Part shown: positions 883 to 11,141 of the stretch, piece by piece | Layout: each line of letters begins with the position of its first letter | Position numbering within the stretch: the stretch's first letter is position 1 | Origin: Promethearchaeota archaeon | GTDB taxonomy: Archaea; Asgardarchaeota; Lokiarchaeia; Sigyniarchaeales; SOKP01 | Direction of reading: 5' to 3' | Assembly (NCBI GenBank): GCA_048941015.1 | Contig: JBHLNZ010000087.1 | Coordinates: 1 to 11,640 of the forward strand | Length of the DNA stretch: 11,640 bases | Made by a program: the position numbers and the translations under genes | The notes under the pieces: model-generated | Database searches by the model: none | Seen by the model: the letters and a program-made list of their open reading frames with translations, nothing else | What the model was told of the DNA's origin: nothing

Positions 883-1680
883 TTAAATCAATTGTTTTTG
901 TATATTTAACTTTTTAATTTCAACAACCTTATAATAATGTAAATAAATCTGAAATTCTTGTAAAAATTGGTTTAAAATACTTATTGAAACGAGAGGAATT
1001 TGATTATTATTAAGTCTTATGGCATTTTCTTCAATTGTCACCATAATAGGGATTAATTTTAATGGCAAGTGCTTTTTTATAAAAGGATCTATCCCTAATA
1101 ATTTATAAATTAATCTTGAAAATGCATCAGGATTTTTCTTTAAAGCAACGACGCGTTGATATTGAAGATTTGCTGCTTTATTTATAGAGCTATATAAATC
1201 TTTATGCCTCCATTGTTTTGCATCAATTAATAAAATATGTTTACCATAAATTCCTATTACGTCAATTTCATACTTCTTTTGACCAGTTTTATATTTTAAA
1301 TTTGATTTATCGGAAAATCTAAAGTTTTTTATTGATTCATATTCATTTCGTACTAATATTTCCTGAATTAATGCTTCAAATCCACTAAAATCTAATAATT
1401 CTGAAATTTTTTTAAGTTCAATATCAAGATATTTGATGGATTCAGCAACAAATTTAATCTTATTGATTGATATATAGTCCGTATAATTTCCACGCTTTTT
1501 TTCAATAAATTCAAAATTATCCAAAAATTCATTCAATTCATAATTATTAAATTTTCTTAAGTTATTAATCTCTGAAATTTCATACCAAATTTCAGATACT
1601 TCATTGTCTGTTGCTCTTAAGATTTCATATATCTCATAAAAAAATCGTTTTATAAATGTCGGAGAAAATCGATCTAACAT
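883..1680 (-). CDS. PD-(D/E)xK restriction-endonuclease-like protein (Mrr_cat/NERD-like)
   Basis: 265 aa ORF with the helix motif FEALIQEIL, then EIDVIG and LLIDAKQW, matching the E...D...(D/E)xK catalytic arrangement. Converges on the radical SAM gene with a 12-bp gap. Confidence 0.7.
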   Translation of the reverse strand: MLDRFSPTFIKRFFYEIYEILRATDNEVSEIWYEISEINNLRKFNNYELNEFLDNFEFIEKKRGNYTDYISINKIKFVAESIKYLDIELKKISELLDFSGFEALIQEILVRNEYESIKNFRFSDKSNLKYKTGQKKYEIDVIGIYGKHILLIDAKQWRHKDLYSSINKAANLQYQRVVALKKNPDAFSRLIYKLLGIDPFIKKHLPLKLIPIMVTIEENAIRLNNNQIPLVSISILNQFLQEFQIYLHYYKVVEIKKLNIQKQLI

Positions 1681-1765: not shown

Positions 1766-2473
1766 CTAATCTTTTATTTTAATTGAGAGGTCAAAATAAG
1801 AATCCTCTTTTTTTTTGGAAACATAAATTTTTTCAACATTACACTCTACTGGTGTTTTTAATTCCCTCTCTAGAACTCCCTCAGTAATGCCACATGCGAT
1901 ATATATATGATATATGTAATCCTCAGAATTTTCTAAAAATAAAGAGTTTTTAAATCGATAAGTTGCTTTTTTCTCTTTAATATTTGAATTTAAAACTGAA
2001 ATTTCAATATTAGGTTGAAATATATCATAAGTAGGGTAAAAATCTTTAAATACTTGAAGATGAATTGTCGAAATTGGATGACCTTTAAAACTTTTCAATT
2101 GTTTATACACTTTAGGACCAAAGGCAAAATCAATTTTATTTACTCCCATTTTCCCTATTTCTTTGAATGCATGCTCTTTATTAGGAAAAAACTCTTTTAA
2201 ACCCATTAAAAGTGATTTATAATATGATAAAACCGTTTTATTTGGAAGATAACTTGATGTAGCACTGAAATATAATTTATATGCTCCAATTTTTCTAGTA
2301 AATACAAGATTTTTGAGTTCAAGTATAGAGACATATTTAGAAACGGTGTTTCTTGAATAACTTTTCAAATCTGCAATATCTGTAATGGTCATCCCTCCGG
2401 GATGATTTCTTATGCTTTCCAGTATCTCAAATTCGTATTCAATACCGGTTCCCTTTTTATTATTACGGCTCAT
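1766..2473 (-). CDS. Winged-HTH transcriptional regulator with a C-terminal V4R/HNOB/Bet3-like domain
   Basis: N-terminal wHTH (ILESIRNHPGGMTITDIADLKSYSRNTVSKYVSILELKNLVFTRKIGAYKLY). The C-terminal half has AFKEIGKMG and YIACGITEGVLERELKTPVECNVE, resembling V4R-fold domains. The HTH call is firm; the V4R call is moderate. Confidence 0.7.
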   Translation of the reverse strand: MSRNNKKGTGIEYEFEILESIRNHPGGMTITDIADLKSYSRNTVSKYVSILELKNLVFTRKIGAYKLYFSATSSYLPNKTVLSYYKSLLMGLKEFFPNKEHAFKEIGKMGVNKIDFAFGPKVYKQLKSFKGHPISTIHLQVFKDFYPTYDIFQPNIEISVLNSNIKEKKATYRFKNSLFLENSEDYIYHIYIACGITEGVLERELKTPVECNVEKIYVSKKKEDSYFDLSIKIKD

Positions 2474-2674: not shown

Positions 2675-2712
2675 AAAAATTAGAGATGATTTTTTGAAGA
2701 AAAATTTAAATA
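2675..2712 (+). promoter_or_regulatory. Archaeal promoter of CD36-like gene 1: upstream box, BRE and TATA
   Basis: GAAAAA (2699-2704) followed by TTTAAATA (2705-2712). The box AAAAATTAGAGATGAT (2675-2690) starts 30 nt before the TATA. The same elements and spacing occur upstream of paralogue 2. Confidence 0.65.
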
Positions 2713-2734
2713 TCACCGAAATTTTAATTTAAAT

Positions 2735-2862
2735 TAGCAAACATTTGATCAACAGTACTGCTCACCCTAAAACAGTAAGCGATTAATTTGTTGATTTTAA
2801 ATGTTTTACTTGGTGAAAAAAAAAATAAAAACTTTGTTATCCTTTAAACGGGAGAAACAATT
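2735..2862 (+). promoter_or_regulatory. Putative structured 5' leader of CD36-like gene 1
   Basis: AAACATTT (2739-2746) can pair with AAATGTTT (2799-2806), and GATCAACAG (2747-2755) with TTGTTGATT (2788-2796). A second hairpin TTGTT-a-TCCT...GGGA-ga-AACAA (2834-2860) covers the SD-like GGGAG. Homologous to 5703-5823. Confidence 0.5.
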
Positions 2863-5310
2863 ATGTCAGAGATAAAAAAGAAAAAATCAATTGGATCTCC
2901 AATTGGAAAGAAGAAAGTTCCTAAGCGACCCAGTAAATTAAAAACAATAAGCGCAATTACTCTTTTAGCTCTTGGGGTTGTCTTAATGCCAACTGGCTTT
3001 CTTTTAAGTGATATTATTCAGGGCGAAATTGATAAGGGGGTTGCGGAACAAGTTCAAGTTCCGCATCCCCATTCATCTGAATACGAAGAATGGGAATCAA
3101 ATGATTATGAGGACGCGCCCGAGCTTTATAAATCATTTTACTTTTGGGATTTAACTAATCCTGAAGAATTTTTAGCAGGGAATACACCAAATTACGTAGA
3201 AGTTGGACCTTTTGTTTTCCGTAACTATAAATACAAGTATGACGTTGATTTTAGCGACAATAAAGATGAGGTTTCCTACAAGGAATATAATTATTTCGTT
3301 CAAGTGGGAGGGGAAGATATTTCAAAAGTAAATATAACTAATATAAATCCCGCTTATATGGGATCTGTAGAATTAGCAGGAGGCACAGAAGAGGAATTAA
3401 TGAAACTAGTTTTCCCGATTTCTCTTGACTTATTAGTGAATATCTTTGAAGAAGATTTTCCTAAAAGAATGGCAGAAGAAGTTTACACATATGACGGTGT
3501 CCTCGATTTAACTGCTGACGCATTATGGATTCAAATCAATGATTTACTTGGAGAATCTTTTGCCGACCTCGCTGCAGTACCTCTTGCAACTATTCTTATG
3601 ACTTTAACGCCCTTTGAAAATATGGTAGCATTGCTGGAAGATTCTATGCCTACAGTACAGGAAATTATATATGAGAAATGGGCAAATGATTATTTTCCCG
3701 ACCTTGAAATAGATATGTCAATTTTATTTCAAATCGATCCTGATAATCCCCCTGACGGATTGGAAGGAATATACTATGATGTACTTAATTTCCTATTTGA
3801 CCAAATTCCTGATCTCGGAATAGCTCTTGGAAGTCTGATGGCACCTGGTTTCCAAGAAGCGAGCAACGATTTATTAAACGAAATGTGTAGTGAAACTGGA
3901 GAAGGTATTGATGTAGATTGGTACCGATGTGGTATTTCAGGTACTGATCCCAAAGATATTAGTCTTGTTGACCGTAGAGTAGTACCTGGTGGTACTGGTC
4001 TTACTTTTGAACAAGTCCAAGCTCTCTGGGATAAAACTAACCCTAATTCACTTACAGGCATGGATTATGAGTTAGGACAAAGGCTATGGTTTGACGCAAT
4101 GGAAGACCCTAGTAAGTTAGACGACATTAAAGCTGAATTTCCATTTTTAAATGGCAAGGATGATGTGATAGGTTATATCTTGGAATGGGTCAATGATGTT
4201 TGTACCACATGGGGAGTAAATGCACTCGAATTCCAAATGAAGGAATATTGGAATTGTTTTGTGTATACTACGCGAACAGTTGAAGAATGGCTTTTCACTG
4301 CTAATGATACTGCTGTATATTATCATTCTAATTACTACCAAAGAAATTTCGATCGTGCTTATATTGGATTTTTACCAAAGTTTTTTGGTCATTGTCAAAA
4401 TACTTTGGAAGCTGAAGCAAATAAAGCTGTAGCAAAATACACTATTAAAACGGGGAGAGATGATGCTAAAGATGTTGGTGAGACTATTGAACGAAATGGT
4501 CAAGATAAAATGTATATATGGGCGGAACCTATTGAAATCGAGGGAACAGATGGTATGCAATTTGGACCTGATGTAACTGAAGAGGATACTCTCAAAGTAT
4601 TCTCCCGAGATCTATTGAGAACGGTTGAGTTGGAATATGATGAACCTGATGAAATATATGATATAGATCTACTACGATTTGAACTTTCAGAAGATCTTTT
4701 TGAACCTAATCCAACTTATTTAATGGATACTCAATTAATCAATGCAGCTCCAGTTGCAAATCTGCTATTGGGAGTAAATGCACCTGTTATGATAAGTAAA
4801 CCTCATTTTCTCGGCGCAGATATCTCTATACTAAAAGGTGTTAATGGAATGAATCCTAATAGTGATTATCATGATACTTATATTGATGTAGAACCAATAA
4901 CTGGACTTACTATGAACGCAAAACAACGAATTCAAATGAACTTAGATGTATCCCCCTCTGGAGTGTACTTAAAAGACGTCAATAGGACAATAATACCAAT
5001 ATATTGGTGTGAGGATAGTGGGGAAATCTCAGAAGATTTGGCAGAAACATTTAAAGAGCTTGTCTATGGTGCGATTGAATTAAAGGAAACCGTCCCCTTA
5101 ATGGGACTTGCTGCAGGCGCAGCTCTCTGTATTCCTGGAGCTGCCTTAACGACGTCCCAAACAATCAAAAGAAGAAAGATTAAAAAAGCAGGTTTGGCTA
5201 AAGACGATAAATTAAAACAAAAAGGTAAAATTACAAAACGAAAAGTTTTAGAAGATAAAAAAGCTCCAAACCTTAAAACTAGCGAAGTTTCTGAATCCAA
5301 GAGCGAATAA
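2863..5310 (+). CDS. CD36/SR-BI/LIMP-2 family (class B scavenger receptor-like) two-TM membrane protein, paralogue 1 (815 aa)
   Basis: Basic N-tail, TM1 (~aa 29-49), large acidic ectodomain, TM2 (PLMGLAAGAALCIPGAAL) and a Lys-rich C-tail. Family motifs appear in the expected order: FYFWDLTNPEEFLAGNTPNYVEVGPFVFR, ITNINP, TRTVEEWLF, YTIKTGRDD, IEGTDGMQFGP, APVMISKPHFLGAD, HDTYIDVEPITGLTMNAKQRIQMN, IIPIYW. Confidence 0.9.
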   Translation: MSEIKKKKSIGSPIGKKKVPKRPSKLKTISAITLLALGVVLMPTGFLLSDIIQGEIDKGVAEQVQVPHPHSSEYEEWESNDYEDAPELYKSFYFWDLTNPEEFLAGNTPNYVEVGPFVFRNYKYKYDVDFSDNKDEVSYKEYNYFVQVGGEDISKVNITNINPAYMGSVELAGGTEEELMKLVFPISLDLLVNIFEEDFPKRMAEEVYTYDGVLDLTADALWIQINDLLGESFADLAAVPLATILMTLTPFENMVALLEDSMPTVQEIIYEKWANDYFPDLEIDMSILFQIDPDNPPDGLEGIYYDVLNFLFDQIPDLGIALGSLMAPGFQEASNDLLNEMCSETGEGIDVDWYRCGISGTDPKDISLVDRRVVPGGTGLTFEQVQALWDKTNPNSLTGMDYELGQRLWFDAMEDPSKLDDIKAEFPFLNGKDDVIGYILEWVNDVCTTWGVNALEFQMKEYWNCFVYTTRTVEEWLFTANDTAVYYHSNYYQRNFDRAYIGFLPKFFGHCQNTLEAEANKAVAKYTIKTGRDDAKDVGETIERNGQDKMYIWAEPIEIEGTDGMQFGPDVTEEDTLKVFSRDLLRTVELEYDEPDEIYDIDLLRFELSEDLFEPNPTYLMDTQLINAAPVANLLLGVNAPVMISKPHFLGADISILKGVNGMNPNSDYHDTYIDVEPITGLTMNAKQRIQMNLDVSPSGVYLKDVNRTIIPIYWCEDSGEISEDLAETFKELVYGAIELKETVPLMGLAAGAALCIPGAALTTSQTIKRRKIKKAGLAKDDKLKQKGKITKRKVLEDKKAPNLKTSEVSESKSE

Positions 5311-5320
5311 TTCACCTAAT

Positions 5321-5346
5321 GGGAATTTAAATTCCCTTTTTTTTTT
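5321..5346 (+). terminator. Hairpin + T10 terminator of paralogue 1
   Basis: GGGAATTTAAATTCCC (perfect inverted repeat, 5321-5336) directly followed by 10 T, 10 nt after the stop codon. An equivalent element follows paralogue 2. Confidence 0.8.
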
Positions 5347-5642
5347 CACATTCATATTAAACAAATCTAAAAAGAAGTACTTATGATATGATAGTTGCAA
5401 TAAGATTTTTTTTAACAATAAAAGACATCACAATTTTAATATTCTATTCGCAACGCTTATCTAAATTCCCTTTTAGTTTTTTATTTTGAAAATTATTGAT
5501 TTTATAAGTAAAATAAGAGTTTTTTTTCTTATATAATTAAGTTCTGATGATATTAGAGAATATTTTAGATTATTCATTTTATATTAAGATTTAAAAAAAA
5601 TAGGAATAATCTATTTTTTAATATAGTAGGATTAGGTTTAAG

Positions 5643-5680
5643 AAAAATTAGAGATTATCACTCAAAGAAAAATTTATATA
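5643..5680 (+). promoter_or_regulatory. Archaeal promoter of CD36-like gene 2: upstream box, BRE and TATA
   Basis: AAAAATTAGAGATTAT (5643-5658), then GAAAAA (5667-5672) and TTTATATA (5673-5680). Spacing is identical to the first copy. Confidence 0.65.
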
Positions 5681-5702
5681 TTATTGAATTCTATTTTTAA
5701 AT

Positions 5703-5823
5703 TAGTAAAATGTTTGATCAACAGTATAGCTCACCATTTATTTATATGTGATGAGTTGCTGGTATTAAATGTTTTACTAGGTGAAAAAAAAAGATTGTTA
5801 TCCTTTAAACGGGGGAAACAATT
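5703..5823 (+). promoter_or_regulatory. Putative structured 5' leader of CD36-like gene 2
   Basis: TAGTAAAATGTTT (5703-5715) pairs with AAATGTTTTACTA (5767-5779) over 13 bp with two G-U pairs. Inner pairings CAGTA/TGCTG and GCTCA/TGAGT are also possible. The hairpin ATTGTT...AACAAT covers the SD-like GGGGG. Confidence 0.5.
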
Positions 5824-8526
5824 ATGTCAGAGATAAAAAAGAAAAAATCAATTGGATCTCCAATTGGAAAGAAGAAAGTACTTAAGCGACCCAGTAAATT
5901 AAAAACAATAAGCGCTATTTCTCTTTTAGCTCTTGGGGTCGTCTTAATGCCAAGTGGCTTTCTTTTAAGTGATATTATTCAGGGCGAAATAGATAAAGGG
6001 GTAGCGGATTATGTCAAAGTTCCGCATCCTCATTCCTCTGAATACGATGAATGGGTATCAAACGATTATGACGACGCACCTGAGTACTATAGAACATATT
6101 ATTTATGGGACTTAACTAATCCTGATGAATTTTTAGCAGGAAATAAGCCGATATATCAGGAAGTTGGTCCTTTTGTTTTCCGAGAGATAATAACCAAATA
6201 TGATATTGATTGGAGTGACGACAAAGAAGAAGTAGCTTATAAGGAATACTCCACATATTATCAAGTGTCTAACCCAAAAATCTCAGAAGTGAATATTACT
6301 AACATAAATCCAGCATATTTAGGAGCCTTAACACTTTCAGGCGGGGAAGACAGTGATTTTATTAGACTCATGATCCCGATAGTCTTGTCGGAAATTAAGG
6401 ATATATTCTCAGAAGAGATGGATGCTGTAATGGCTGATGTCTTAACTGAAGAAGGAGTTACAAATTTAATGAACGAAGCTTTACCAGATGTCGTCAGTAA
6501 AATGATAGATGATTTCATCGTCCAGCTCCCTGAAGTTGTTGATGATCTACTCGATTCTTTACTCGGTCCTTTACTTAGTGATCTTTTTGGTATTCTTTTT
6601 GGTTGGGTCATCGATTTGTTTATGGATTTTGCTACAGAGATGATTAATAATCTAAAAGATGATTTAGGACCAGGATTGGCTAAATTATTAGGTGATTTAA
6701 TACCTCCAGATATGACATTAGCTTTAATGGAGGACGTCATGGCGGATATCTCAGCAGAGGACATTATGTATTATGAATGGGCTAATGATTATTTCCCTGA
6801 AATTGAAGTTGACTTAACAGATACGATGTTATATCTTAGAAATAACTTAAAAACGGATGATCTTCGGAAATTAATATATGATGTAGCCGAGATATTTGCT
6901 GAGGATTATTCATCAATAGAAACTCTACTTCTATACGCAGGAGATATGATGTCATTAATAAACTGGCTTATAGACCCTTTAATCCCTCTTATTTTTGATT
7001 TACTTGGGGATCTTGGAGCACAAGCACTCATGGAAACGATGATGACCAGAATGATCCGAGATATAAGTGCTGGTTTGGTAGACTCTGAAGGGAGTAAAGA
7101 CGGTGTAGGAGTTGACATAGACGGACGAGAACCATATAATTATCCTGGTAAGCAAGCTGATTTAAACATCAGTATGCATTCTAAAGGTGGATCAGGACTG
7201 AACCTGGAGCAATGTCATGCTCTATGGGATAAAAGTAACCCTAATTCACTTACCGGAATGAAATATGTAGATAATAAGATATGGTATGAAGCATTAGATG
7301 GTAATCAGGAGAGTAAAAATTCCTTAATGACCGAATTTGAAATAGAACCAGAACAATTAGAATTAATCTTGGACTGGATTGATGTAAGTTGTAACGATTG
7401 GGTAATAAATGTGGTTGAATGGTCTTTGGATGATTGGAATAGTGGTTTTGTCGTTACACGTACAGCTGAAGAATGGCTTTTCACAGCTAATGATACAGCT
7501 GTATATGAATATTGTGAATATTATGAAGAAGACACTGACAAAGCATTAATCGGCTTTTTTGATAATTGTCATAATGAGATTGAAGCTGAAGAAGCAGAAG
7601 TTCCAAAATATACAATTAAAACAGGGAGGGATGATATAAGTGAAGTTGGCCAAGTTGTAGAATACAATGGTCAAGAAGAAATCAATATCTGGGCAGAACC
7701 TATTGAAGTTGAGGGTACCCTTGGTACACAATTCGCACCCGGTGTCTCCGAAGAAGACGATCTTAAAGCATTTAATATCGATTTGATGAGAGTTGTTGAA
7801 TTGGAATACGATGAACCCGCAGAAATATATGGTATAGAATTACTTAATTATGAACTGGCGGAGGATACTTTTTCACCAGATCCATTATATTTTCAGGATA
7901 CTGAGGGACTTGCTAATTTAGAAGTCATTGAAAAGTATCAAGATGTGCCTGTTAGAGTTAGTAAACCTCATCTACTCGGTACACCTGCTTATATACAAGA
8001 AGGTGTAATTGGAATGTTACCTCAAGGTAATATTCATGATACTCACATAAACGTGGAACCGATAACAGGTCTCGTTATGGACGCAGCTATGAGAGCTCAA
8101 GTTAACTTTGAAGTAAATCCCACTGAAATATATTTACCAAATATCTCAAATACGATAATGCCTATTCTTTGGATGGAAGTTAGTGGGGAAATAACCGAAG
8201 AATTGGCAGAGCGATTTAAAGAACTCGTCTATGGCGCGATGGAATTAAAAGAAACAGTTCCCTTAGTGGGACTGGCAGCAGGCGCGGCTCTCTGTGTTCC
8301 TGGTGCTGCCTTAACAACATCCCAAACCACTAAAAGACGAAAGATTAAGAAAGCGAGATTGGCTAAAGGCGACAAATTAGCACAACAAAAAGGTATAATT
8401 ACAAAACGTAAAGTTTTAGGCGATTCAAAAGCTCCAAACCTTAAGAACGACGGTATTTCTAAGCCAGCGAGCTCTAGTGCTCCTATGCTTAAAAATGGCG
8501 GAGTTCCTGATTCCAAGAGCGATTAA
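5824..8526 (+). CDS. CD36/SR-BI/LIMP-2 family two-TM membrane protein, paralogue 2 (900 aa)
   Basis: Same topology and motifs as paralogue 1: YYLWDLTNPDEFLAGNKPIYQEVGPFVFRE, TRTAEEWLF, YTIKTGRDD, VEGTLGTQFAP, VPVRVSKPHLLG, HDTHINVEPITGLVMDAAMRAQVN, IMPILW. The termini are near-identical to paralogue 1. Confidence 0.9.
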   Translation: MSEIKKKKSIGSPIGKKKVLKRPSKLKTISAISLLALGVVLMPSGFLLSDIIQGEIDKGVADYVKVPHPHSSEYDEWVSNDYDDAPEYYRTYYLWDLTNPDEFLAGNKPIYQEVGPFVFREIITKYDIDWSDDKEEVAYKEYSTYYQVSNPKISEVNITNINPAYLGALTLSGGEDSDFIRLMIPIVLSEIKDIFSEEMDAVMADVLTEEGVTNLMNEALPDVVSKMIDDFIVQLPEVVDDLLDSLLGPLLSDLFGILFGWVIDLFMDFATEMINNLKDDLGPGLAKLLGDLIPPDMTLALMEDVMADISAEDIMYYEWANDYFPEIEVDLTDTMLYLRNNLKTDDLRKLIYDVAEIFAEDYSSIETLLLYAGDMMSLINWLIDPLIPLIFDLLGDLGAQALMETMMTRMIRDISAGLVDSEGSKDGVGVDIDGREPYNYPGKQADLNISMHSKGGSGLNLEQCHALWDKSNPNSLTGMKYVDNKIWYEALDGNQESKNSLMTEFEIEPEQLELILDWIDVSCNDWVINVVEWSLDDWNSGFVVTRTAEEWLFTANDTAVYEYCEYYEEDTDKALIGFFDNCHNEIEAEEAEVPKYTIKTGRDDISEVGQVVEYNGQEEINIWAEPIEVEGTLGTQFAPGVSEEDDLKAFNIDLMRVVELEYDEPAEIYGIELLNYELAEDTFSPDPLYFQDTEGLANLEVIEKYQDVPVRVSKPHLLGTPAYIQEGVIGMLPQGNIHDTHINVEPITGLVMDAAMRAQVNFEVNPTEIYLPNISNTIMPILWMEVSGEITEELAERFKELVYGAMELKETVPLVGLAAGAALCVPGAALTTSQTTKRRKIKKARLAKGDKLAQQKGIITKRKVLGDSKAPNLKNDGISKPASSSAPMLKNGGVPDSKSD
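8431..8523 (+). repeat. Degenerate 48-bp (16-aa) tandem duplication in the C-tail of paralogue 2
   Basis: APNLKNDGISKPASSS / APMLKNGGVPDSKSD, with GCTCC starting at 8431 and 8479. Paralogue 1 has a single unit (APNLKTSEVSESKSE). Confidence 0.7.
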
Positions 8527-8536
8527 GTCACCTTTT

Positions 8537-8562
8537 GGGAATTATTATTCCCTTTTTTTTTT
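8537..8562 (+). terminator. Hairpin + T10 terminator of paralogue 2
   Basis: GGGAAT-TATT-ATTCCC (8537-8552) followed by 10 T, 10 nt after the stop. The stem is conserved with copy 1 while the loop differs. Confidence 0.8.
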
Positions 8563-8917: not shown

Positions 8918-9433
8918 TTGAATATTATTAAAGGGGATTTTAGGTTGAGCAGAAATAATGATGAAATTATTAGAAAATATCTCCCATCAGATGTAGCTAC
9001 TAAAAGTGGATTCAAGTCTTTTGATGAAAATAAGATATATAGGAGTCTTTTAAAAGAAACTACCTTAAATTATGAAGCTGCTGAACAAATTACTAAAACT
9101 GTTTTAAGGAGGATTATATCTTCCGAAATCGGGTTTCTATCAGGACCGCATATTAGAGAAATCGTATGCTCTGTTTTATCAGAGATGGGATATGAAGAAG
9201 AAAGAAAACAGTATACCAGAATAGGAAGACCAATGGCAGATTTAAAGAAAATTTGTGAAGAATATTTAAAAAAAATAATTGAATTATCCAAAATGAATTT
9301 ACCCAAACAAGCCTTTCTTCGGAGGAGGAGGAAGATTCGAAAAGAATTCTTATATTGTATTTCTAGCTGGGATTTAAGAGAATTTACTGATGTGGTAAAG
9401 ATAAGTAAGAATTTTTCATTTAAATTAGATTAA
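8918..9433 (+). CDS. Stand-alone ATP-cone domain protein resembling the N-terminus of archaeal NrdD; true start may be the TTG at 8945
   Basis: FDENKIYRSLLKET...AEQITKTVLRRIISSEIGFLSGPHIREIVCSVLSEMGYEEERKQYTRIGRP matches the ATP-cone pattern FD..KI..sl..E ... IRE.V...L plus the following YTR.G.P. SD-like AGGGGA at 8932-8937 precedes the in-frame TTG at 8945. Confidence 0.75.
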   Translation: MNIIKGDFRLSRNNDEIIRKYLPSDVATKSGFKSFDENKIYRSLLKETTLNYEAAEQITKTVLRRIISSEIGFLSGPHIREIVCSVLSEMGYEEERKQYTRIGRPMADLKKICEEYLKKIIELSKMNLPKQAFLRRRRKIRKEFLYCISSWDLREFTDVVKISKNFSFKLD

Positions 9434-9725: not shown

Positions 9726-11141
9726 ATGACAGAGCATGAAAAAAGCCCTATCATTAAATCAATTGTCTTAAGTATTTTTGACGAGGAGGGTCCCACACCT
9801 AAAGTATATTGGCCAAATATAATGGAAGAAAGTAGTTTACTTCAAATAGCAATGAAGACAATTAGTCTATTGATGGGAGATGAAACATATCAAGATGGTG
9901 AGGATCTAAATATTAATTATTTTGGCATCCTGCCTTTCCCTGATCTAAAAATGAGCGGACTCACATACTTTTTTCTTATAGCAGATGAAAAAGCTCGAGG
10001 TCAAGCGAAAGCAGCTACTATAACGGTGTTAATAAATGATGATAACAAAAGTTTTTTTCATGAGAATATGAAATATTTGAGGGTATTAATCGATAAGGCA
10101 GCCACTCAAATACAAAACACAAAATTAATCAATGAATATAAACAAATCATTGATAAAGTAAGAGAACACTTAATCGACTTTTGTAATGATTTGAAAGATC
10201 CTTTTTCTTCTAAAAGAAAGATAAAAATAGTATATACTGGCTTAGATAGAGCTGGTAAAACAAGTTTTCTCCTCGCAGTTAAAAAAAAGTATTCTGAAAT
10301 TATAAAGGCACTACCCACAAAAGGAGTAGAAAGATCTGAGGAAAAAATTTTTGAGGAACAAAACAGCCAGATGACAATATGGGATCTTGGGGGTCAAAAA
10401 CGATATAGGGAGAAATATCTTGAACAAAGTAAATATTATCTTTATAATATTGATTTGCTATTTTATGTTATTGATATTCAAGATTCCAAAGAGAGAATAG
10501 ACCAATCATTGGAGCTTTTTATTAGAATAATTAAATCTTTAATAGAATTGGATGAATTCCCTCCAATTGTCGTTTGTTTTAATAAATATGATCCAGACTT
10601 AAAATATTCGGAAGAGATAAATAAAAATATATCTTATGCTACCAACGAGATAAAGAAGAATTCAGATAAATTCTTCGTTAAAATTTTTCGTACTAGCATT
10701 TTCGATTATTGGAGCCTCATTTCAGCTTATTCCTATGGACTTTCTCAGTTAAGCCCCAATCGAGAATTCTTTAAAAAACAATTAAAATTCTTCGCAGAAA
10801 AGACAAATGCAGATGCTTTATTGCTTTTAAATGAGAATGGTATTATATTATCCAATTATTCCAAAAACGAGATTTCAAGAAAAGTATTCGAAATATCTGC
10901 CCCTCATTTTCAAACATTATATAAAACATTTAAAGAATTTAAATTGCTTAAAGAAGATTTCATAGTATCTTCAGGAATTACTACCGAAACTAAGAATGTT
11001 ATATTTAAAAAAATTAAAGTTGATAAATATAATTTATATTTACTTTTTTTTATTGAAGAATATTTTAATATTAAAACAATTGATAAATATTTACCGGACT
11101 TTTCTAAAACTCTTGTTGATTTAATAGAAACTTATATTTAA
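9726..11141 (+). CDS. Multidomain small GTPase: N-terminal longin/uDENN-like domain, Arf/Rag-like G domain, C-terminal roadblock-like domain
   Basis: G1 GLDRAGKTS (aa 172-180, nt 10239-10265), G2 PTKG, G3 WDLGGQ, G4 NKYD, G5-like TSI. The N-terminal SIVLSIFDEEGPTPKVYWP resembles the first strands of uDENN/longin domains. The C-terminal ADALLLLNENGIILS is roadblock-like. The G domain is firm; the flanking domain calls are moderate. Confidence 0.85.
   Translation: MTEHEKSPIIKSIVLSIFDEEGPTPKVYWPNIMEESSLLQIAMKTISLLMGDETYQDGEDLNINYFGILPFPDLKMSGLTYFFLIADEKARGQAKAATITVLINDDNKSFFHENMKYLRVLIDKAATQIQNTKLINEYKQIIDKVREHLIDFCNDLKDPFSSKRKIKIVYTGLDRAGKTSFLLAVKKKYSEIIKALPTKGVERSEEKIFEEQNSQMTIWDLGGQKRYREKYLEQSKYYLYNIDLLFYVIDIQDSKERIDQSLELFIRIIKSLIELDEFPPIVVCFNKYDPDLKYSEEINKNISYATNEIKKNSDKFFVKIFRTSIFDYWSLISAYSYGLSQLSPNREFFKKQLKFFAEKTNADALLLLNENGIILSNYSKNEISRKVFEISAPHFQTLYKTFKEFKLLKEDFIVSSGITTETKNVIFKKIKVDKYNLYLLFFIEEYFNIKTIDKYLPDFSKTLVDLIETYI

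Follow-up and report, generated by a model that had tools for sequence, protein, structure and literature searches.

The stretch analyzed here (the window) is the whole of an 11,640-bp contig (JBHLNZ010000087.1; C33) from a metagenome-assembled genome (MAG) of a Promethearchaeota archaeon, GenBank assembly GCA_048941015.1, which comprises 3.59 Mb in 144 contigs and is 95% complete and 5% contaminated. Two genes, A and B, lie in tandem on its forward strand and encode large membrane proteins of the CD36 family; a gene for a winged-helix protein is oriented divergently from A (Table 1). CD36, SR-BI, and LIMP-2 have central roles in the uptake of lipids, the recognition of particles, phagocytosis, and the biology of the lysosome. 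A first-pass annotation of the DNA had described A and B as two intron-less, full-length CD36 homologues in a genome that was probably that of an Asgard archaeon, and both genes were indeed found to be uninterrupted open reading frames (ORFs) exactly as annotated.

Both proteins matched the Pfam CD36 profile (PF01130) far beyond chance, with scores of 262.5 bits for A and 250.4 bits for B (curated cut-off, 26.5), which bore out the proposed homology. By sequence alone, PDB chains of LIMP-2 (E 1.8e-36) and CD36 (E 5e-32) were retrieved. The PF01130 match covered positions ∼3-457 of the 463 in the profile, in two stretches (∼3-150 and 151-457). The motifs of the family occurred in A in the order given by the first-pass annotation, namely LTNPEEFLAG..EVGPFVFR (residues 97-120), GTDGMQF.P (residues 561-569), ISKPH (residues 644-648), and HDTYIDVEPITG...R.Q.N (residues 669-693), and equivalents of all of them were present in B.

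Inspection of hydropathy and charge revealed a hydrophobic helix at both ends of each protein, basic tails, and an acidic ectodomain, in agreement with the two-transmembrane topology that had been annotated. The N-terminal hydrophobic helix comprises about residues 24-52 in both A and B, and the structural model of A described below has an unbroken helix (residues 25-64) at this end. Each N-terminal tail is 28 residues long and rich in Lys and Arg. The tails of both proteins have isoelectric points above 10, the C-terminal tail of A containing 18 Lys and Arg in 53 residues, and the middle part (701 residues in A and 769 in B) has an isoelectric point of 4.05. Given the basic tails and the positive-inside rule, the tails are expected to be cytoplasmic and the large domain to be outside. 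This ectodomain contains six cysteines in A and four in B. Among 24 Asgard sequences, cysteine was conserved (18 of 24) at two columns only, which correspond to A position 385 (Val in A, Cys464 in B) and to C511 of A; the other cysteines are unconserved. By every testable criterion except the disulfides of animal members, A and B are CD36 family proteins.

Protein A was modeled with AlphaFold2 on 24 Asgard homologues (predicted local distance difference test (pLDDT), 79.7; predicted template modeling score (pTM), 0.70). Comparison of the model with LIMP-2 matched 376 of 394 LIMP-2 residues at 2.4 Å and revealed the asymmetric β-barrel fold, and an Atlas model of SR-BI aligned to A residues 24-767. 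The family alignment contained 56 invariant columns, most of which fall within the barrel core. That the Pfam match is split by a helical insert implies that the full CD36 barrel is kept and that the additional residues are placed at the membrane-distal apex. Nearly all LIMP-2 residues being paired in the model of A, the helices equivalent to the LIMP-2 bundle are probably kept, in addition to ∼290-370 extra helical apex residues. The description of A and B as full-length CD36 homologues thus stood, but this insert of 290-370 residues had escaped the first-pass annotation.

The insert separates the two parts of the Pfam match by ∼290 residues in A and ∼370 in B, and the same split was present in every Asgard homologue found. 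In the AlphaFold2 model, the insert of A (residues ∼163-463) is predicted to be entirely helical; folded alone (pLDDT 76.7, pTM 0.75), it had no recognizable counterpart among solved structures. The insert of B contains a strongly hydrophobic helix at residues 245-263 (hydropathy 1.73, matching the membrane anchors) that is not present in A and that may serve the head in contacting lipid or inserting into a membrane. Compared with the vertebrate receptors LIMP-2/SCARB2, CD36, and SR-BI/SCARB1 (PF01130; PDB 4F7B, 4Q4F, 4TW0, and 5LGD), A and B differ not only in their archaeal host but also in an ectodomain that is ∼300-370 residues longer through helical apex expansion, is strongly acidic, and is without the animal disulfide pattern, and in Lys-rich tails that show no recognizable eukaryotic sorting motifs.

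A hidden Markov model (HMM) of the insert only was built from the Asgard inserts (A residues 166-460) and compared with 585 shuffled controls, of which the maximum score was 5.1 bits. Twenty-seven of 49 long (≥650 aa) non-Asgard proteins scored above all 585 shuffles, with a top score of 45.7 bits (E 3e-13 for 1,000 targets), and the match was always at one ∼70-residue block, always inside the target's own apex expansion. Among 68 shorter rows, five scored above the shuffles; four of these were N-terminal fragments whose match to the Asgard profile is otherwise strong, and the fifth was a genuine short form (7.4 bits), so that genuine short forms contributed 0-1 of 64. The block follows the pattern sG[IL]s.e.c..LW...nP.SLt...W..A......L...F.ls..Ql..iL.W in Loki-type, Kariarchaeaceae, amoebozoan, and other protist proteins. 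On these profile scores, the apex block is homologous between the Asgard and the long-form protist receptors.

It is these long-form protist receptors (among them those of Luapelamoeba, Endostelium, Cavostelium, and Dracoamoeba) that are closest to A and B in architecture. They share the length class of 740-870 aa, the position of the apex expansion, and the ∼70-residue block, and are the best-scoring non-Asgard matches; A and B, in turn, have the ectodomain length (701 and 769 aa, above 500) and the expansion at Pfam position ∼150 that define the long form. The two groups differ in that the rest of the insert cannot be aligned and that they fall on opposite sides of the branch between Asgard archaea and eukaryotes (support 90/97; see below). 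Dictyostelium LmpA-C are long-form homologues that, according to the literature, act in phagocytosis; the comparison set represents them by proxy, through amoebozoans other than Dictyostelium. In a survey of eukaryotic class B scavenger receptors in which prokaryotes are unmentioned, apex expansions were described as having arisen independently in single lineages from an ancestral three-helix bundle (PMC10715195). The shared block argues against that account at least in part, and in favor of at least some of the expansion being ancestral to the Asgard and the long-form eukaryotic proteins. Within the Asgard archaea, some Heimdall/Kariarchaeaceae-type proteins (P0043, P0047, P0049, and P0052) reach 1,333-1,648 aa, with ∼600-1,000 residues inserted at the apex, and close relatives in the same clade have only 455-517 aa. 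Giants beside short relatives in one clade indicate that apex size is extremely labile within Asgard too.

Table 1. Features of the window, with predicted domains and signals of A and B. Coordinates are positions in the window.
Feature	Coordinates	Strand	Remarks
NERD-like ORF	883-1680	-	265 aa
Winged-helix regulator-like gene	1766..2473	-	235 aa (P0193); divergent from A
Upstream region of A	2680..2862	+	Copied before B (5645-5823); ∼85% identity over ∼200 nt
BRE/TATA-like AAAAATTTAAATA	2700-2712	+	Before A; inside upstream region; putative promoter
GGGAG ribosome-binding-like site	2850-2854		Before A
CD36-family gene A	2863..5310	+	815 aa (P0001); uninterrupted ORF
A N-terminal membrane helix	2947..3018	+	Residues ∼29-52; hydropathy and charge; follows basic tail 1-28
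A helical apex insert	3358..4242	+	Residues 166-460; missing from animal CD36/LIMP-2
A conserved block in insert	3988..4212	+	Residues ∼376-450; common to long-form protist CD36 proteins
A C-terminal membrane helix	5092..5160	+	Residues ∼744-766; hydropathy peak 1.83; Lys/Arg-rich tail after
Terminator-like hairpin + T10 after A	5321..5346	+	
CD36-family gene B	5824..8526	+	900 aa (P0002); uninterrupted ORF; old paralogue of A
B N-terminal membrane helix	5908..5979	+	Hydropathy; residues 1-60 95% identical to A
B helical apex insert	6319..7428	+	Residues 166-535; ∼75 residues longer than that of A; 34% identical to it
B hydrophobic helix in insert	6556-6612		Residues 245-263
B C-terminal membrane helix	8257..8325	+	Residues 812-834; hydropathy
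Terminator-like hairpin + T10 after B	8537..8562	+	
Small ORF	8918-9433	+	171 aa
Rag-like GTPase gene	9726-11141	+	471 aa

The contig is short (11.6 kb) and the MAG has an estimated contamination of 5%, which leaves room for a eukaryotic contaminant or a chimera misbinned into an archaeal genome. The genes, however, are closely spaced and A and B are intron-less and followed by terminators of the hairpin and T-run kind, and the same contig bears the winged-helix gene and a gene for an N-terminally extended, Rag-like GTPase, which is typical of Asgard archaea. Base composition fits the genome as well: its GC content is 0.294, and A and B (GC 0.364 and 0.370; GC at third codon positions (GC3) 0.25 and 0.27) stand at the 95th-98th percentile of its own long ORFs, high but within the distribution. 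Orthologous pairs of winged-helix and CD36 genes occur on Asgard contigs of more than 100 kb, homologues lie on Promethearchaeota contigs of up to 504 kb, and two contigs bearing homologues (271 and 138 kb) have a prokaryotic gene layout that includes ribosomal protein eS30. The window is therefore Asgard, as the first-pass annotation had supposed, and eukaryotic contamination is effectively excluded.

The search across Asgard genomes that had been proposed detected PF01130 in 29 of 400 genomes of the phylum (∼7%) and in 11 of its 85 genera. Positive genomes numbered 19 of 134 in the family of the window and 5 of the 41 other genomes in its genus, and 14 control genomes gave no match. From 5.8 billion proteins searched, 30 homologues (470-980 aa) were retrieved, each with PF01130; those with names came from MAGs labeled Promethearchaeota (Asgard), Hermod-, Hod-, or Lokiarchaeota. 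In a scan of species-representative genomes, 16 loci were found, all in Asgard MAGs, on contigs of up to 504 kb.

When the Asgard profile was scored against 1.84 billion cluster representatives, 6,376 proteins were obtained at E ≤1e-3 and 1,063 at E ≤1e-30. After ∼50 Asgard entries, the best matches were long-form (740-870 aa) eukaryotic proteins, for example from the amoebozoans Luapelamoeba, Endostelium, Dracoamoeba, and Cavostelium; other groups among the best non-Asgard matches were Pygsuia, Ancoracysta, Tetradesmus, and Leptophrys, and typical ∼500-aa forms. An unrooted tree of 79 sequences was inferred from 440 barrel-core columns, with the insert left out (IQ-TREE, LG+C20+F+G4 with posterior mean site frequencies). 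Eukaryotic names were taken from 30 cluster look-ups, and P0075 was placed among the Asgard sequences by gene context. All 29 Asgard sequences fell on one side of a branch with an ultrafast bootstrap of 90 and an SH-like approximate likelihood ratio of 97 (given in this order throughout), which was present in 86% of bootstrap trees; the other side held sequences of at least five eukaryotic supergroups. Within the Asgard group, A and B belong to a Loki-type clade (100/100), and the Heimdall/Kariarchaeaceae-type homologues (455-1648 aa), members of the same family with very variable inserts (∼500 aa to >1300 aa), form a separate subclade (92/74); both follow the taxonomic family codes of the carrier genomes. 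An Amoebozoa-containing clade of 16 sequences excluded the Asgard proteins at 94/88, and these fell in no other named eukaryotic group. Nesting within one eukaryotic clade, which the first-pass annotation had named as the mark of horizontal transfer, was thus not seen. A first FastTree topology, in which Heimdall-type sequences interleaved with some eukaryotes, was not reproduced under the site-heterogeneous model and was treated as a model artifact.

How this tree is read depends on its root. A root on the Loki stem gives (Loki, (Heimdall, eukaryotes)), as expected for vertical descent, and a root among eukaryotes implies ancient transfer into Asgard. In the latter case, real Asgard genes would have come from a eukaryote or stem eukaryote, such as a phagotrophic long-form protist, and then spread among Asgard archaea. 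This is consistent with the patchy distribution, the different subclades inside one genus, the slightly raised GC and GC3 of A and B, the short Asgard stem (0.11) beside a eukaryotic backbone without resolution, and the long-form protist proteins, with their shared apex block, being the best non-Asgard matches. Transfer is nevertheless considered rather unlikely, given that the Asgard sequences form one group outside the Amoebozoa-containing and other named eukaryotic clades, that Asgard branches are shorter than eukaryotic ones, and that the split between Loki-type and Heimdall-type follows taxonomy, which fits descent from before those lineages split, an event earlier than eukaryotes on current species trees. 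A vertical, pre-eukaryotic origin of the family in the Asgard lineage is accordingly favored, with moderate confidence, as the reading of these sequences. The gene would have been present in the Asgard lineage before eukaryotes arose, and many losses and some exchange within Asgard would have followed. A further step, that the Asgard ancestors of eukaryotes possessed long-form class B receptors, that these descended vertically, and that the short three-helix-bundle form of animals is a secondary reduction, is advanced more tentatively and may well prove wrong.

A and B are 49% identical overall, with identities of 95% over A residues 1-60, 85% over A residues 736-790, 57% in the C-terminal half of the barrel, and 34% in the insert. 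The barrel of A is nearer to P0003 of another genome (60%) and that of B to P0009 and P0013 (68%). B is not the sister of A in the tree but that of P0034 (97/97), and A groups with P0003 (94/78). As each pairs with homologues of other genomes, the duplication predates these genomes. Synonymous divergence (dS) between A and B was 0.16 over codons 1-60, 0.47 over codons 61-85, ∼1.65 over codons 86-460, and ∼1.0 over codons 461-735, dropping to 0.69 and 0.45 at the 3′ end. The apex, with a nonsynonymous divergence (dN) of 0.63, is the most enlarged and fastest-diverging part. Over the 300 nt that span the leader and the first 85 codons, the two genes are 91% identical, non-coding DNA included. 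Low dS at the ends against high dS between them, together with conserved non-coding 5′ DNA, is the signature of gene conversion. On this pattern of substitutions, A and B have been homogenized at both ends, which left promoter, leader, anchors, and tails alike while the ectodomains diverged.

The first-pass annotation had placed both genes behind BRE/TATA promoters (BRE, transcription factor B recognition element). The element AAAAATTTAWATA is present at 2700-2712 and 5668-5680, 150 and 144 nt before the ATGs of A and B, respectively, and these are its only matches in the window, against 0.2 expected. Both lie in the duplicated segment, so they are copies and not independent occurrences; their promoter function is putative. 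A ribosome-binding-like site (GGGAG/GGGGG) was found 8 nt before the ATG of each gene. Since each has its own upstream element and its own hairpin with a T10 run, A and B look like two separate transcription units. A σ70 promoter scan of the window gave 32 sites against 30.3 in shuffles, and the lack of an excess is as expected for an archaeon.

The divergent gene encodes an N-terminal winged helix-turn-helix (wHTH) domain that scored 22.3 bits with HTH_IclR (cut-off 22) and, in a profile comparison, matched the IclR structure 1mkm in the PDB at E 3e-5. Its orthologues matched HTH_IclR, MarR/MarR_2, HTH_24, and HTH_11 in 15 of 15 members. The C-terminal ∼170 residues (70-235) gave no Pfam match even at E 10 and no PDB match, and a language-model lead to V4R/MetOD1 was weak, its score of 0.80 being at a level often reached by chance. 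Orthologues of the wHTH protein are 54-64% identical, and so better conserved than the CD36 genes they accompany. Of the 20 genomes with CD36 in the family of the window (f1), at least 17, the genome of the window (G000) among them, encode such an orthologue near a CD36 gene, either 0.1-0.3 kb downstream of it or, in other orientations, up to 4 kb away. Five of these genomes are of the same genus, in which the two genes adjoin on contigs of up to 114 kb. Because the same-genus genomes hold a different CD36 subclade, the pairing of regulator and receptor appears to have persisted while the receptor gene was replaced or differentially lost. The wHTH family has multiple copies and occurs in 70 of 134 genomes of the window's family with up to seven copies per genome (a second copy in the present genome is at G000:C48:33638-34315) and in 1 of 266 genomes elsewhere in the phylum. 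This linkage is suggestive of regulation of the CD36 genes by the adjacent wHTH protein, which would be their likely transcriptional regulator.

For the remaining neighbors in the window (a radical SAM protein, a NERD-like protein, and a RagA/Gtr1-like GTPase), conservation beside CD36 genes was not seen elsewhere. The GTPase, two genes 3′ of a LIMP-2 relative, has a Gtr1/RagA-type domain (E 4e-24), with Arf, Roc, and Ras matches too, and an N-terminal extension of ∼150 residues with a weak, below-cut-off match to the Folliculin family (PF11704, E 5.5e-4); it is Rag-like, and its N-terminal part is possibly of the longin type. The small ORF that follows B has a weak ATP-cone match (E 1.3e-3, below cut-off). 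A homologue (46% identical) lies ∼9 kb upstream of a CD36 gene on the 271-kb contig (L017:891-1169), a loose synteny; as a candidate operon partner the ORF was rejected, not being homologous to the ORF downstream of P0020. The NERD nuclease-related match of the NERD-like ORF is sub-threshold (E 5.5e-4), and the GC content of this ORF (0.234) is the lowest in the window, at the 1st percentile for long ORFs of the genome. No Rfam families were found in the window. PIG-L and MoCF, considered as conserved partners, proved specific to another CD36 subclade. In other Asgard MAGs, a 977-aa Adaptin_N/HEAT protein (L019:2011-4944) and an Acyl_transf_3/HGSNAT-like membrane acetyltransferase (L018:14584-15714) are encoded near CD36 genes; each was seen once and may be a coincidence. 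The eukaryotic relatives of these two proteins function in vesicle coats and lysosomes.

The tunnel of LIMP-2, CD36, and SR-BI passes fatty acids, cholesterol esters, or phospholipids. By analogy, the apex of A and B would capture a ligand that is hydrophobic, or else the lipid-bearing surface of a particle, vesicle, or partner cell, and lipid would move through the barrel tunnel between what is bound at the apex and the outer side of the cell membrane, A and B possibly differing in ligand preference. Tunnels in the eukaryotic receptors and lipid-sized cavities in a bacterial relative, Mycobacterium smegmatis LmcA, provide the precedent for lipid (PMC10715195, PMC8972800). If the proteins instead served only in adhesion or recognition of syntrophic partners, vesicles, viruses, or surfaces through the apex, with a barrel that moves no lipid, the enlargement and rapid divergence of the apex and the extra hydrophobic helix in B would fit; the eukaryotic apex, the membrane-distal ligand-binding end, binds proteins and particles such as GCase, PfEMP1, and HDL (PMC10715195). 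That possibility is judged unlikely, given that the barrel core is nearly complete and holds most of the invariant columns, so that it appears to be functional and not a mere stalk, and that binding and lipid transfer go together in known relatives. An outward role in the delivery or maturation of envelope lipids or lipoglycans, on the model of the lipoglycan biosynthesis proposed for the actinobacterial LmcA (PDB 7N3V; DUF3068/Pfam PorA), appears distinctly improbable: LmcA shows only 11% identity, has no Pfam CD36 match, and carries a single protruding helix in place of a helical apex; both sequence and fold of A and B are far nearer to LIMP-2/CD36 than to LmcA, and PIG-L linkage is missing from the window and from other subclades.

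Taken together, the observations are best explained by genuine CD36-type genes, in tandem and independently transcribed, in a Loki-type Asgard archaeon, whose products would handle lipids or particles and whose history would be pre-eukaryotic; as a whole this explanation is thought probable, though by no means secure. Several points weigh against it. The distribution is patchy (29 of 400 genomes; 5 of the 41 others in the genus), and the CD36 genes of same-genus genomes belong to another subclade, with 38-42% identity to A and B, so that within-Asgard transfer or differential loss must have occurred. The two to three disulfides typical of animal class B scavenger receptors are lacking, a single partly conserved cysteine pair being absent from A itself. 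The tree is unrooted, and its sampling is biased by the choice of the eukaryotic sequences as best matches to an Asgard profile. Members of the wHTH family also occur where no CD36 gene was detected (72 versus 29 of 400 genomes), and lipid-metabolism genes are not consistently linked to CD36 genes in the neighborhoods examined.

The first-pass annotation had suggested a little-described or undescribed family. In agreement with this, no paper was found in which archaea, Asgard or other, are mentioned together with CD36, LIMP-2, or scavenger receptors, and CD36/LIMP-2 go unmentioned in two large recent surveys of what Asgard archaea contributed to eukaryotes; databases already carry automatic labels, as Pfam matches and as “CD36 family protein” on one Heimdallarchaeota record. 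The only pan-eukaryote survey found follows the family back as far as, but not beyond, the last eukaryotic common ancestor (PMC10715195). The kind of protein is thus known, and what is new is the archaeal host domain and its bearing on the history of the family.

The origin of a receptor family considered to be eukaryote-only probably extends to the archaeal relatives of these organisms. With homologues in two major Asgard lineages, a membrane receptor joins the eukaryotic signature proteins, and the shared apex module challenges the view that apex expansions arose independently in each lineage. The tandem pair, with its converted ends and diverged heads, constitutes a natural experiment in ligand specificity. 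Should the genes have come by transfer, they would say nothing about the pre-eukaryotic toolkit; if the long form is ancestral in Asgard, a device for lipid or particle capture, later one of phagocytosis and the lysosome, would predate the eukaryotic cell. A and B offer a testable handle on how Asgard cells, in close contact with partners, might exchange or scavenge lipids, a question that bears on the transition from archaeal to bacterial membranes in eukaryogenesis.

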